Assembly: GCA_964610875.1 (NCBI GenBank)
Contig: CAZSWP010000010.1
Coordinates: 1 to 64,000 of the forward strand
DNA length: 64,000 bases
Source: an uncultured archaeon
GTDB taxonomy: Archaea; Asgardarchaeota; Thorarchaeia; Thorarchaeales; Thorarchaeaceae
Reading direction: 5' to 3'
Part shown: piece by piece, positions 36,151-42,746 of the stretch
How positions within the stretch are numbered: the stretch's first letter is position 1
How the letters are laid out: every line of letters begins with the position of its first letter
The notes under the pieces: model-generated
The model's database searches: none
What the model saw: the letters and a program-made list of their open reading frames with translations, nothing else
What the model was told of the DNA's origin: nothing
Made by a program: the position numbers and the translations under genes

Positions 36151-36360
36151 TCAACTTGTCCTGGAATCAATATATCTGCCAAGTCGCGGAATCACAAGCA
36201 GGAATGCAACAATGTACCAGAGTAGGACACCTAGAGCGATTCCGATCCAAGGTAGATTGCTTGGGTCTGGGCTACCGAAACTTGCTACCAACGCGTCTTG
36301 ACCAAGCCGTAACAGAAGGATTGGTAGTATTGCGACGACCAACAAGATAAACACCTTCAA
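36151..36360 (-). CDS. Small two-TM protein (candidate immunity-like protein)
   Basis: 69 aa, hydrophobic with basic residues; followed by hairpin GAGGGAGT/ACTCCCTC. Confidence 0.4.
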   Translation of the reverse strand: MKVFILLVVAILPILLLRLGQDALVASFGSPDPSNLPWIGIALGVLLWYIVAFLLVIPRLGRYIDSRTS

Positions 36361-36564
36361 TAAAAGAACCTTTAAGATGTCCGATATTGATGCCTATCGA
36401 ATATGCTCCATCCGTGTCATTCATTGGAGTTACATCATCAGAATCTGTGTCTTTATGATAGATTTGGATTCATCGATGATTTCTCAAGTACGCTGCCTTT
36501 TTTATTTTCATCCGAATTATTATAATCATCTTTAAATAGTGATTGAAGTAATTTCGACAGAGAG

Positions 36565-37224
36565 TTGAATTGCAGGGCAATTCTAGCACTACGAATAAAA
36601 GTGCGCTATTCAAAACTGGAGGAGTATGCAATAAAATCGATTGCTATCAAGCTATCTCATTTTTTAAAAGAGCATATGAAAGATGGTATTTTCATTAGTT
36701 GCATTACAATGATTTGTGGCCAAGTCATAGGTGCTTTAATTGGACTAAGCTTTGATGCTCCACGTCCAGAGGATCTAATCATTACGGATCCCCCTCCTCA
36801 GGAGTGGATTTTTCAAAACAATTCATCAGTAGCTCTTGGTCTATCCTTAGGTGGCCTATTATTCGGTGTCATCACAATCGCAATTCTTCTTTTTAATTCT
36901 ATATTACTTGGTTACTGGGTTCAGGAAAGAATAAGATCACAAGGACCAATGATGGCCTTTCTTTTGGTGGTACCTCATGGGATATTTGAGATACCAGCAT
37001 TGCTGCTAGCTGGAGCTGTAGGTGTTGAGATTGCGAAATGGACATTCCGTTTATTTATCTCTAGCCCAAGTTCTGAAGGGGAACAAATGGATAAAGAAGA
37101 AAACTCAGACGAAGTACTTATTAAGTGGGTAGTGTCGAGGATGATTGTAGTTGAGGTGCTACTATGCATTGCTTCATATGTCGAAGCATATATTATACCT
37201 CTATTAGTCGGAATGCATATGTGA
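36565..37224 (+). CDS. Stage II sporulation protein M / DUF95 membrane protein
   Basis: IFQNN, N..LLG, PHGIFEIPA, ASYVEAY. Confidence 0.85.
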   Translation: MNCRAILALRIKVRYSKLEEYAIKSIAIKLSHFLKEHMKDGIFISCITMICGQVIGALIGLSFDAPRPEDLIITDPPPQEWIFQNNSSVALGLSLGGLLFGVITIAILLFNSILLGYWVQERIRSQGPMMAFLLVVPHGIFEIPALLLAGAVGVEIAKWTFRLFISSPSSEGEQMDKEENSDEVLIKWVVSRMIVVEVLLCIASYVEAYIIPLLVGMHM

Positions 37225-37236
37225 TGTGGCAGAACC

Positions 37237-39822: not shown

Positions 39823-40143
39823 TTACGCAGCTCCACCAGCAGCAATAAGAATAGCAATTATTGACCATTGCCACATTTGAAATGTGAACGAGTAAAAGTG
39901 TCCAGCATAATATGTGGTAAGTGTCAACTCACTATTGTATCCCAAACCTAGAGACGCCATATTCATGACATAGTAGGTTATCGTGGCTGCTAAGGCTACC
40001 AATGCGATTGCAGGTGCCATGGCGAGTCCAAAACTTGCTGCAACAAGTGCTGCTGCCCCTCTAAAAAGTGGAAGCATGATTGCTGCTGCAAATGGAATAA
40101 ATAGCATTTGCAGTGCTTTCTTATCTGAATTGTTCAACTCCAT
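39823..40143 (-). CDS. Ala-rich hydrophobic 106-aa protein; candidate circular-peptide precursor
   Basis: RBS GGAGAGG before ATG 40143; short polar leader MELNNSDKK then an Ala/Leu-rich core ending IAAGGAA. Confidence 0.55.
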   Translation of the reverse strand: MELNNSDKKALQMLFIPFAAAIMLPLFRGAAALVAASFGLAMAPAIALVALAATITYYVMNMASLGLGYNSELTLTTYYAGHFYSFTFQMWQWSIIAILIAAGGAA

Positions 40144-40335
40144 AATGCATTTTCCTCTCCAATTTTCGATTTGCCTTTTACAAGGCAAGATGCATACTAC
40201 TAGCACTCTTATAAGCATTTTGAGCTTTGAGCACCAAAAGGGGCAATATATTCAGAAGAGTATATATCTTTGAGAGAATGGATGCCTGAAAAGAACGATC
40301 GTGGAATTCCTTAGATAGAAAGGAGGACATATGGA

Positions 40336-41115
40336 TTGAGTGCAATAGAGATTTGCAACTTGGTAAAGAAATTTGGTGATTTGATAGCAGTGAATAATAT
40401 CTCCTTGGATATACATGAAGGAGAGGTCTATGGATTATTAGGTCCAAATGGTGCAGGTAAAACTACGACTCTGAAAGTCCTCATGGGTCTTATTGATCCC
40501 GATTCTGGATCTGCAAATGTTTTTGGAATAAACTCAACTGAGAATCCGATTGAAGCAAAGAAGAGAGTGGGATATGTTCCCGAAGAACTGCATCTTTATG
40601 ATTCGCTGACATCCTATGAGCTCTTCGAATTTGTAAGCTCTATCAGGAAGGTCGATCCTTTGGTAGCCAGACAGCGAGTATCTGGTATGTCGGAAGCACT
40701 TAGCTTCACTAAACACTATAATAAACCGATAGTAACACTGTCACAAGGAAATAAGCAAAAAACAATGCTAATTGTGGCAATGCTTCATGCTCCAAAGCTG
40801 TTGATTCTTGATGAACCTTTTTCCGGTCTAGACGTGAAAGCGATACGAATAATGAAGGAAACAATTGGCTTGCATAAAGCATCTGGAGGTACAGTATTAT
40901 TTAGTACACACAATATGGAGATGGCAGAAGACCTCTGTGATCGTGTTGGGATAATAGATGAAGGATTACTTGTTGCAGAAGGTGCACTTGACGATTTACG
41001 AATACAAGCTGAATCAGAGGGTGAAACACTTGAGCATGTGTTTCTAAAACTCACTAACGAAGAAGAGGATATTACTAAGCAGATAGGTGTAATGAGGGAG
41101 GCACTTGGTTATTGA
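40336..41115 (+). CDS. ABC transporter ATP-binding protein
   Basis: GPNGAGKTT, LSQG, ILDEP, STH. Confidence 0.93.
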   Translation: MSAIEICNLVKKFGDLIAVNNISLDIHEGEVYGLLGPNGAGKTTTLKVLMGLIDPDSGSANVFGINSTENPIEAKKRVGYVPEELHLYDSLTSYELFEFVSSIRKVDPLVARQRVSGMSEALSFTKHYNKPIVTLSQGNKQKTMLIVAMLHAPKLLILDEPFSGLDVKAIRIMKETIGLHKASGGTVLFSTHNMEMAEDLCDRVGIIDEGLLVAEGALDDLRIQAESEGETLEHVFLKLTNEEEDITKQIGVMREALGY

Positions 41116-42746
41116 ATTTTAGAGAGCGTTGGCGGATTGCAGGATATGTTGCACAGGATATTCGTTTCCAAAGCTATCTTGAGGCTAATCCCACCAACTT
41201 TTCTAGAACAAAAGAAAATCCTGAAAACATCGCATCCCAAATAAAGAGAGCTTCCTCTCTCAATGTAGTTACCACTGCATTCATCATCATTGTACTTGGA
41301 CTTTTCATATTTATCCCATTTTATTCGATAGAGAGTTCTGGTTCATCGGGACTCCTATTTTCCTTGGATGTTACTCTATTTCTTGTTATCAGTTCATTTC
41401 TCATACTCTTTATGAATATAACATCGTCAACAGGTTTTTTTGATGCTGATGCAATACAATTTCTATCAACACTCCCTTTCCATAAACGCGATTTAGAGGA
41501 TCTAATGCAGCTTTCGTTCCTAAGAACCTTCATTGCACCTTTAGCATCAATTCTAGTTCTCGTCCCGTTAATGATGACACTGTTATTTGGGCCTCTAACT
41601 GGTATCTTTGTATTAGCTGCATCAGTGGTATCCTCTATCTTAGCAATTGGATTATTAGTCGAAGTAGCTGGATGGTTTCATAAGAAATCAAAATCCGGTG
41701 ATAATTCGAAGTTATCAGTTATTATTAGAATCGGAGCGGGTCTAGGATTTATCTTAGGCATGTTTGCAGGCTATAGCATGGTTAGTTTCATGCCTTTGAT
41801 TTCGGAAGCGATTCTAAGATTTTCATTCCTCAAAGATTCCGGGATTTTTACTCTTTTAGCCCTTATATATCCCATTTCATTTGGCATCGTAGCTTCGGTG
41901 CTTTTGTATGGTCCAATATATCCAGTGACAACCATAGTTGCAAGCATCATTGCCTCCCTCTGCTATTTCATCTTGGGTGCGAGAATTTTCCACAAAATTG
42001 GTAAGACTTTACGGGCAGTCCTTTCGGACTCTTCATCTTCTTCCATAACACAATCACCCCCCACATTTGACGTGATTTCACCGCTTCATGCACTAATCCG
42101 AAAGGATTTCAGTATTGCAACTCGTAGCCTTGGATCTATTGTTGTTCTCGTTTTACCCATTGTTATGTTCTTCTCAGTTATACCAATACTCTCTATCATC
42201 CCCTATGAAACAATCAGGAGTACAACAGTTCTACTAAGTTTAGGATACACAACAATTTTCGCTGGCTTTTCGGTAAATGGCATTCTGAATTTGGACACTC
42301 AAGGAGCATCCGTATATGACAGTCTTCCACTTGAAAGTAGACTTGTGATCAGAGGCAAATCCGCAATATTTGCGCCGTTCTACATTGCTACAATGATCAT
42401 TGTATTTGTGGTCCTCCTTGGACGTCCTCTAATTTCCTCTTTCCTTCTATTTATTCCTCTTTTCCAGATCCCATGCGTTTATTCAATTACATATTCGGTA
42501 GGAACACTAATCTACATGATACGTAGTGGTGGACATGCGATATCAATCAACATAAATGGTGATCAACTGCTATCTGTCCTAGGATTTTTGATAAGCGCTG
42601 TATTGGGAATACTTCCTTTGATGGGATATACGATAAGTCTTATTACAACAGACAGTCACCTTGTTTCAGTAGTAGTACAATTATCTATAGTTATCCTGGA
42701 AGTTCTATTGGTTAGAGCAATCATGCAGCATATCTTGAAAGACTAA
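41112..42746 (+). CDS. Large ABC exporter permease (many TMs)
   Basis: 544-aa hydrophobic ORF overlapping the ATPase; LSTLP and SLP motifs. Confidence 0.75.
   Translation: MNFRERWRIAGYVAQDIRFQSYLEANPTNFSRTKENPENIASQIKRASSLNVVTTAFIIIVLGLFIFIPFYSIESSGSSGLLFSLDVTLFLVISSFLILFMNITSSTGFFDADAIQFLSTLPFHKRDLEDLMQLSFLRTFIAPLASILVLVPLMMTLLFGPLTGIFVLAASVVSSILAIGLLVEVAGWFHKKSKSGDNSKLSVIIRIGAGLGFILGMFAGYSMVSFMPLISEAILRFSFLKDSGIFTLLALIYPISFGIVASVLLYGPIYPVTTIVASIIASLCYFILGARIFHKIGKTLRAVLSDSSSSSITQSPPTFDVISPLHALIRKDFSIATRSLGSIVVLVLPIVMFFSVIPILSIIPYETIRSTTVLLSLGYTTIFAGFSVNGILNLDTQGASVYDSLPLESRLVIRGKSAIFAPFYIATMIIVFVVLLGRPLISSFLLFIPLFQIPCVYSITYSVGTLIYMIRSGGHAISININGDQLLSVLGFLISAVLGILPLMGYTISLITTDSHLVSVVVQLSIVILEVLLVRAIMQHILKD

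Follow-up and report, generated by a model that had tools for sequence, protein, structure and literature searches.

A seven-gene SpoIIM-Yip1-ABC transporter cassette in a Thorarchaeon, a credible archaeal counterpart of circular-bacteriocin loci

Gene content and layout of the cassette

The stretch of DNA analysed here, hereafter the window, comprises positions 1 to 64,000 of contig CAZSWP010000010.1 (assembly GCA_964610875.1) from an uncultured archaeon of the Thorarchaeaceae (Asgardarchaeota). At 36565-42746 the window holds a seven-gene cassette of ∼6.2 kb, in which genes for a SpoIIM/DUF95-family protein, a Yip1-family protein and two ATP-binding cassette (ABC) transport systems are grouped around a gene for a small, hydrophobic, Ala/Gly-rich protein (Table 1). 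By its parts list, gene order, specificity, linkage and peptide composition, the cassette is a credible archaeal counterpart of bacterial circular-bacteriocin loci, and its closest likeness is to the gassericin A-type subgroup, which is neutral or acidic. Gene families were assigned by listing open reading frames (ORFs) and scanning them against Pfam and NCBIfam. An earlier note, made from the sequence alone, had described an operon of SpoIIM, Yip1, ABC ATPase and permease converging on a small Ala-rich hydrophobic ORF, together with a second ABC exporter pair; the Pfam scans found all of these where the note had placed them.

The first four genes are tightly packed on the plus strand, and the small ORF is convergent to them. 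The start of the SpoIIM gene is ambiguous (TTG at 36565 or ATG at 36676). Its product carries the family motif as PHGIFE and is 64-71% identical to the orthologues on the metagenome contig L017 and in genome G023, both described below. The Yip1 gene begins 12 nt downstream, with orthologues at 74-75% identity. ATPase 1 has a C-terminal extension with a weak match to DrrA1-3_C (PF13732, E 9e-4, 20.4 bits, below the 27.4-bit cut-off), and its best NCBIfam matches, GldA and DrrA, both fall below cut-off. The accompanying 288-aa permease, a protein with multiple transmembrane (TM) segments, matched no Pfam family; its L017 orthologue is 63% identical. A candidate terminator lies after the stop of the small ORF, between the two convergent genes.

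The second operon diverges from the small gene, and the promoters of both are presumed to lie in the shared intergenic region. ATPase 2 has an 82% identical orthologue. At 259 aa it is close in size to the core ATPases of bacterial circular-bacteriocin loci (202-253 aa), which match the same hidden Markov model (HMM). The 544-aa partner protein matches PF09847 (12TM_1) over its full length at 32.1 bits, below the 33.2-bit cut-off, and its L017 orthologue (65% identity) was recorded as PF09847. By position in the locus, it is an analogue of the large As-48B/CirB-type membrane proteins. The 12-TM gene is single-copy in this genome, which encodes one further Yip1 elsewhere.

Table 1. Features of the cassette (window coordinates) and location of the related type B operons (coordinates of the contigs named)
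Feature	Position	Strand	Basis or remark
SpoIIM/DUF95-family membrane protein	36565..37224	+	Pfam PF01944, E 9.1e-23, 81.4 bits (cut-off 26.9 bits)
Yip1-family membrane protein	37237..37857	+	PF04893, E 1e-7, 32.5 bits (cut-off 28.6 bits)
ABC ATPase 1, DrrA/GldA-like, ABC-2 type	37891..38823	+	PF00005, E 6.4e-28
288-aa multi-TM permease	38807..39673	+	17-nt overlap with ATPase 1 gene, translationally coupled
Candidate terminator, 9-bp GC-containing hairpin AAGAGCTTC/GAAGCTCTT followed by a T-run	39748..39788		Sequence read directly
106-aa Ala/Gly-rich hydrophobic protein, candidate precursor	39823..40143	-	Shine-Dalgarno-like site, terminator, syntenic homologue
Divergent intergenic region (192 bp) between small gene and ABC2-12TM operon	40144..40335		Gene coordinates and sequence
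ABC ATPase 2, DrrA-like, 259 aa	40336..41115	+	PF00005, E 4.5e-30
544-aa membrane protein, 12TM_1-like	41112..42746	+	4-nt overlap with ATPase 2 gene, translationally coupled
Type B operon, genome G010	L015 7287-12856		
Type B operon, genome G012	L016 2014-7597		
Type B operon, NCBI assembly	L167 2762-8337		

The 106-residue protein

A GGAGAGG Shine-Dalgarno-like site lies 10 nt upstream of the start that gives a product of 106 residues. An exhaustive HMMER search found a single homologue, P0004 (102 aa, 63% identity, E 1e-25), encoded within an identical seven-gene arrangement on metagenome contigs. Its gene starts at the same MELN, preceded by an AGGAGG site and by in-frame stops. The 106-aa start is preferred because of the Shine-Dalgarno-like site, the 3' hairpin with its T-run and this shared start of the homologue; a 131-aa version from an ATG at 40218 was dropped in its favour. 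Between the two cassettes the small gene has a ratio of nonsynonymous to synonymous substitution rates (dN/dS) of 0.35, with an in-frame 4-codon indel, close to the values for SpoIIM (0.36) and the permeases (about 0.3). This purifying selection, together with the homologue in identical synteny, identifies the small ORF as a genuine gene. Beyond P0004, no relative came up among 40 related genomes; in a word index of 5.8 billion proteins the query matched nothing but itself, the ESM Atlas yielded no usable match, and scanning metagenomes for the pattern led back to the same species.

The protein has a polar N-terminal end, a TM-like segment reaching to about residue 29, and a near-uncharged region of ∼77 residues that ends in AGGAA. 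Its grand average of hydropathicity (GRAVY) is 0.94 and its Ala+Gly content 28%. The putative core (residues ∼30-106) has a predicted isoelectric point (pI) of 5.2.

Comparison with authentic circular-bacteriocin loci

Published circular-bacteriocin clusters share a signature of precursor, SpoIIM and transporter, often with Yip1, and the precursors described in these sources include altitudin S, at 132 aa (PMC8659200, PMC5695211, PMC7132975, PMC13289728, bioRxiv 10.1101/2025.10.31.685828). A length of 106 aa is not out of range, because the altitudin S precursor is longer still. Control loci were fetched with precursor HMMs. TIGR03651 scored above its cut-off in 16 of 351 Bacillales genomes and PF12173 in one of 401 Bacilli genomes, and the control set comprised 12 TIGR03651 loci (L149-L160) and one PF12173 locus (L166, genome G970). 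All 13 have, next to the precursor gene, one for a short SpoIIM (162-188 aa long) and one for an ABC ATPase (about 200-250 aa). A large multi-TM protein (377-606 aa, about 7-12 predicted TM segments) is present in 12, including 11 of the 12 TIGR03651 loci. Among five candidate Yip1 proteins scanned, those of L166, L158 and L159 (∼230 aa, five TM segments) scored above the Pfam cut-off; the match in L152 was weak and L151 gave none. Where Yip1 occurs in these loci, it accompanies an accessory MacB/HlyD transporter. The literature and the authentic loci thus agree with the earlier note, which had named SpoIIM with an ABC ATPase, often with Yip1, as the hallmark of such clusters.

The small archaeal protein also falls within the range of the authentic precursors. 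Those with long leaders measure 96-111 aa, with GRAVY 0.77-1.12 and 25-36% Ala+Gly; at their N-terminus a short tip, polar or containing Lys, precedes a TM-like stretch. The 106-aa protein lies inside all three ranges and shares this N-terminal layout. On the same hydrophobicity measure, authentic precursors score as one or two 'TM' segments. The authentic loci further contain two- or three-TM ORFs of 56-92 aa at the positions of immunity genes.

The layout was compared across SpoIIM contexts by a four-feature score, which counts an ABC ATPase, Yip1, a large multi-TM protein and a small hydrophobic Ala/Gly-rich ORF near a short SpoIIM. The comparison set consisted of 54 other SpoIIM loci, from a range of bacteria and archaea, that had been retrieved for their similarity to the Thorarchaeota SpoIIM. 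These scored 0-1, authentic circular-bacteriocin loci (n = 13) 2-4, the intact Thorarchaeota cassettes (n = 4) 4, 4, 4 and 3, and a remnant in genome G023 (n = 1) 2, with the criteria fixed after both sets had been seen and some contigs short. The separation, which carries no formal test, is suggestive of a cassette layout like that of authentic loci and unlike that of other SpoIIM loci. Contexts in the comparison set include the sporulation neighbourhood of Bacillales, an adjoining 7-TM gene in Methanomicrobia, taken to be the AliA/arCOG02177 pairing of PMC5898192 and PMC12462473, and ABC-fused forms in Chloroflexi. In four Chloroflexi loci (L048, L055, L081, L086) a gene for an ABC ATPase (∼311 aa) is followed, in a conserved arrangement, by one for a ∼478-aa SpoIIM-domain protein; this suggests that SpoIIM can supply the membrane part of an ABC system or be fused to that part.

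Among the authentic loci, the closest likeness is to the gassericin A/butyrivibriocin type (subgroup ii, PF12173), represented by L166. As in the window, its precursor is a hydrophobic, Ala/Gly-rich, acidic or neutral protein of ∼100 aa with a long, TM-containing leader. The gene order in L166 is precursor (103 aa), SpoIIM (184 aa), a 6-TM protein (171 aa), ABC ATPase (246 aa) and a 589-aa membrane protein, with a divergent Yip1-HlyD-ABC-FtsX module. Both loci have the short SpoIIM, Yip1 with a second ABC system, a multi-TM protein of ∼550-600 aa coupled to an ABC ATPase (∼250 aa), and a small multi-TM protein, which is counted in the common parts list. The L166 precursor has a pI of 4.65 and an Ala-rich C-terminal tail, and at pI 5.2 the archaeal core is closer to it than to the AS-48/circularin type. 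The systems differ in core length (∼77 aa for the putative archaeal core, 58 aa in the gassericin type), in the sequence of the precursor, which is dissimilar, and in host, a bacterium for L166 and an archaeon here. The large protein is 12TM_1-like in the archaeal cassette and falls in no Pfam family in the bacterial loci, and the accessory pump is of the ABC-2 type in the cassette and MacB/FtsX with HlyD in L166.

Subgroup i (AS-48, circularin A, uberolysin; TIGR03651) has SpoIIM and an ABC ATPase in 12 of 12 loci, as here, and Yip1 and a second ABC system in several. Its precursors mostly have a pI of 9-10, with cationic cores and KK-rich C-terminal patches that end in an aromatic residue, whereas the archaeal core ends in AGGAA.

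Affinity of the SpoIIM protein

The window SpoIIM belongs to the same fold family as Bacillus subtilis SpoIIM, which acts in engulfment, and it fails the sporulation equivalog TIGR02831, at 21.4 bits against a cut-off of 100.2 bits. In an IQ-TREE maximum-likelihood tree, two clades of Thorarchaeota SpoIIMs lie outside the sporulation clade (94/85 support) and outside the Methanomicrobia and Methanobrevibacter clades. The tree neither supports nor contradicts a specific tie to the bacteriocin-linked SpoIIMs. The PHGxxE motif was considered as a diagnostic of cluster SpoIIMs and dropped, as the motif is family-wide.

Relatives and borders of the cassette

Metagenome contigs L017, L018 and L099+L100 share the synteny of all seven genes, small ORF included, with protein identities of 63-82%; we call this arrangement type A. 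One further metagenome carries the same cassette sequence. Nucleotide homology of the syntenic contigs is confined to window positions 36653-42752. The flanking genes differ (transaldolase and ribulose-phosphate epimerase in the syntenic contigs), and the cassette thus occupies different insertion sites. L017 also carries, at 3293-5709, a second ABC ATPase and 12TM_1 pair beside a histidine kinase and away from SpoIIM, with 62% and 37% identity to the cassette pair.

A further locus, in the related genome G023 ('Promethearchaeota archaeon'), is read as a decayed remnant of the cassette: only 161 aa of its permease remain, and it lacks both the small gene and the second ABC pair. Convergent to the truncated permease gene, on contig L014 (187-4155), lies a gene for a 1322-aa protein that appears repeat-rich, with a Thr-rich segment near the C-terminus, and ends in a hydrophobic C-terminal segment.

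The earlier note had included a 69-aa two-TM ORF (36151-36360, minus strand) in the locus. Neither the syntenic contigs nor the G023 remnant contain this ORF. A close relative has an 89-aa counterpart in an unrelated context (L168 1044-1313 and short metagenome contigs), whose homology to the window stops at 36327, inside the 5' end of the 69-aa ORF. The ORF was therefore rejected as an immunity gene or cassette member: it is a 5'-truncated flank gene outside the conserved block. From this alignment end, position 36327 probably marks the left junction of the cassette insertion.

Three diverged copies of a 68-nt sequence (62-74% identity) lie at 35134-35201, 36026-36093 and 42943-43010. Each corresponds to the 3' end of a minus-strand gene encoding the C-terminus ...RQEK(QM)*; only the third is within an intact gene (42946-43449), and the second and third bracket the cassette. 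Together with the end of homology at 36327 and the different flanks in L017, these bracketing repeats show that a block of ∼6.4 kb was inserted or moved as a unit. No recombinase is encoded inside this block. A border in a split tetratricopeptide-repeat (TPR) gene was also considered; used as a query, the 76-aa TPR fragment found nothing beyond weak, generic TPR matches.

A second arrangement and its distribution in Asgard archaea

The earlier note had proposed looking for synteny in other Asgard genomes. The parts list does recur, as a co-directional seven-gene operon (type B), in three other Thorarchaeota (G010, G012 and L167; Table 1). The order there is small ORF (117-127 aa), SpoIIM, Yip1, a ∼495-aa membrane protein, two ABC ATPases (∼248 and ∼312 aa) and a permease (∼252 aa). 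The small proteins are rich in Ala and Gly, hydrophobic and almost without charge. SpoIIM and the two ATPases have homologous counterparts in the window (E 6e-16 to 1e-48 by hhalign); Pfam detects Yip1 in L015 at E 8e-10, with a weak match (E 0.066) in L016. The arrangements differ in that the type B genes run in one direction with the small gene first, whereas in the window the small gene is convergent to the first operon and the second operon diverges from it. Type B opens as L166 does, with a small gene followed by SpoIIM, and its remaining parts are the same in a slightly different order. The occurrence of the same parts in two gene orders argues for a functional unit. A shared N-terminal 'motif' of the type A and type B small proteins was rejected, since a generic charged tip followed by a hydrophobic segment explains it.

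The cassette is rare and patchy: a short SpoIIM of the cluster type was found in four of the 400 Asgard genomes searched.

Interpretation and alternatives

We estimate a probability of about 0.5 that the cassette encodes a processed or exported peptide with its own dedicated machinery. Under this interpretation the 106-aa protein would be the precursor, with its N-terminal ∼29-37 residues (the polar tip and TM-like segment) serving as a membrane-docking leader. SpoIIM/DUF95, ATPase 2 and the 12-TM partner would remove the leader, release or export a core of ∼70-77 residues and possibly join its ends. Yip1, ATPase 1 and the permease could form an accessory expulsion or self-protection pump, like the As-48EFGH or YknWXYZ-type modules. 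In Bacillus subtilis, the Yip1-type protein YknW works with the YknXYZ ABC exporter against a membrane-active peptide; the membrane fusion protein and FtsX-type permease of that system are absent from the archaeal cassette. True head-to-tail closure of the core is a more doubtful step, and the peptide, if made, may be antimicrobial or a signal. The boldest form of the proposal is accordingly tentative, and we hold it rather unlikely: the 106-aa protein would be the founding member of a new ribosomal peptide family, cleaved and joined head-to-tail in Asgard archaea by means of SpoIIM and the ABC/12-TM exporter, and the first circular 'archaeocin'. Only SpoIIM, Yip1 and the ABC ATPases are homologous between the archaeal and bacterial systems, and neither contains a protease; on this proposal, the comparison would confine the leader-cleaving and cyclising activity to SpoIIM, with its conserved PHGxxE motif, or to its membrane partners.

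Several observations weigh against this interpretation, in addition to the after-the-fact criteria of the four-feature score. The small protein matches no circular-bacteriocin family at E<=0.1 (Pfam, including PF12173; NCBIfam, including TIGR03651) and has no profile similarity to the authentic gassericin-type PF12173 precursor (hhalign E 0.84). Its putative core contains no Lys or Arg and, at ∼77 aa, is longer than the usual cores of 58-70 aa. AlphaFold2 predicts two long helices forming a hairpin for the core (residues 30-106; predicted local distance difference test, pLDDT, 78.7) and a long helix, a hairpin and a helix for the full protein (pLDDT 70). Both models look like a small integral membrane protein rather than a compact four- or five-helix globule, within the limits that single-sequence input and a shallow alignment set to their meaning, and Foldseek found no PDB match for the core model. 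No small immunity gene is conserved in the archaeal cassette. The 544-aa protein shows no detectable homology to the As-48B/CirB-type large proteins of bacteria (hhalign E 0.33), and by hhalign neither the large membrane proteins nor the permeases are detectably homologous across type A, type B and bacterial loci. The type A and type B small proteins are likewise not significantly homologous (hhalign E 0.0098, 4% probability, over 24 N-terminal columns only). Scored against group HMMs, the window SpoIIM does not favour the bacteriocin-linked group (75 bits), with sporulation at 87, Methanobrevibacter at 80 and Methanomicrobia at 61 bits, the non-bacteriocin groups having been picked by similarity to the query; in the tree, the Thorarchaeota clades sit on an unresolved backbone with long-branched bacteriocin-linked sequences. 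Finally, G023 keeps SpoIIM, Yip1 and ABC genes without the small ORF, an arrangement of the kind that the earlier note had named as a refutation of its inference, although that locus has also lost its second ABC pair and part of its permease. A predicted complex of SpoIIM with the small protein scored 0.05, below the mark, which counts neither for nor against binding.

The cyclic peptide system proposed in the earlier note is thus supported in part: its architecture scores like that of authentic loci, and its candidate peptide matches no known precursor family and has a core modelled as a two-helix hairpin. The HMM searches that the note had suggested divide in the same way, assigning SpoIIM, Yip1 and the ATPases and finding no precursor family for the small protein.

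The main rival is that the small protein is a stable subunit in a membrane complex of DUF95, Yip1 and ABC proteins. In the archaeal 'dark matter' cassettes of Makarova et al., a DUF95/SpoIIM paralogue (arCOG01996) is combined with Yip1 (arCOG02054) and with small three-TM proteins that evolve fast, frequently close to an ABC transporter. Those authors proposed roles in membrane defence, remodelling or vesicle formation and drew no connection with circular bacteriocins (PMC4158269, PMC5898192). The window shares with these a SpoIIM paralogue adjoining Yip1, a small diverged hydrophobic protein, ABC genes nearby and a patchy spread, a likeness by description, arCOG membership aside. The cassettes they described come from Archaeoglobi, Methanococci and Thermococci, sometimes with a SalXY-type ABC transporter, whereas the window is from an Asgard archaeon and has two ABC-2-type systems, one with a 12-TM partner. 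On this account the 106-aa protein would be a permanent three-TM subunit and the ABC systems would move lipids or envelope material. The membrane-helix appearance of the AlphaFold2 models fits it, as do the putative core without a charged or amphipathic surface and genome G136, in which SpoIIM occurs with a 6-TM protein and a set of small TM proteins and no ABC system. It leaves unexplained why the parts, and partly their order, coincide with those of authentic loci and of no other sampled SpoIIM context; the same hydrophobicity measure finds one or two 'TM' segments in authentic precursors too, and the 'dark matter' cassettes could themselves be the same peptide system. We regard a membrane complex as possible, at clearly less than even odds.

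Considerably less probable is a locus for immunity or efflux alone, with no peptide of its own: Yip1 and the pair of ABC exporters would pump out membrane-active peptides of foreign origin, and the small protein would serve in immunity or as an accessory factor. Both ATPases rank as DrrA- or lantibiotic-protection-like in NCBIfam, the association of Yip1 with an accessory transporter in authentic loci suits such a role, and the cassette has no recognisable protease or cyclase. Bacterial circular-bacteriocin loci equally lack a recognisable cyclase (PMC8659200), however, and SpoIIM is held to be a class-defining gene of production and maturation, not of immunity (PMC13289728, PMC7132975). The small protein, with its leader-like N-terminal end, also exceeds in length the ORFs found at immunity positions. 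It is very improbable that the genes are merely adjacent, with a generic pair of ABC exporters and a fortuitous small ORF beside a SpoIIM-Yip1-ABC operon. ABC-2 exporters are common, and L017 has its second ABC and 12TM pair away from SpoIIM; yet all seven genes keep their synteny though the flanks differ, the same parts recur in another order in three further genomes, purifying selection acts on the small ORF, which has a Shine-Dalgarno-like site in both genomes, and the 12-TM gene is single-copy here.

Almost all circular bacteriocins described to date come from Gram-positive bacteria, and the enzyme responsible for leader cleavage and ring closure is still sought (PMC8659200). No paper in the literature searched reports a DUF95-type circular-bacteriocin cluster in archaea, and a 2026 preprint on archaeal bacteriocins does not mention such clusters. 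If the peptide interpretation is right, peptide warfare or signalling of the circular-bacteriocin kind would extend to Asgard archaea, and the archaeal DUF95-Yip1 'dark matter' cassettes would be offered a function. Comparing the two domains, whose systems would then share a parts list but neither the peptide nor the large membrane proteins, would indicate which common component carries out the chemistry. With seven genes in 6.2 kb, the cassette is small enough to be suited to synthesis and heterologous expression.

Neighbouring genes and other SpoIIM-domain proteins

Just outside the cassette, a 184-aa ORF (43463-44017, minus strand) matches only positions 89-283 of the 283 in PF12679 (ABC2_membrane_2) and looks like an N-terminally truncated ABC-2 permease, with no adjoining ATPase gene.

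The locus in G136 (contig C93, L131, 6753-10483) encodes a SpoIIM of 220 aa, a 181-aa six-TM protein whose gene overlaps that of SpoIIM, and several multi-TM ORFs of 75-139 aa, with no ABC transporter; this minimal set resembles the 'dark matter' cassettes of Makarova et al. Most genomes of the Thorarchaeota family (about 30, including this one, G000 contig C6 58720-59040) also encode a fused SpoIIM-domain protein of ∼900 aa, whose SpoIIM-like domain corresponds to profile residues near 70-190 and is distinct from the short SpoIIM of the cassette.

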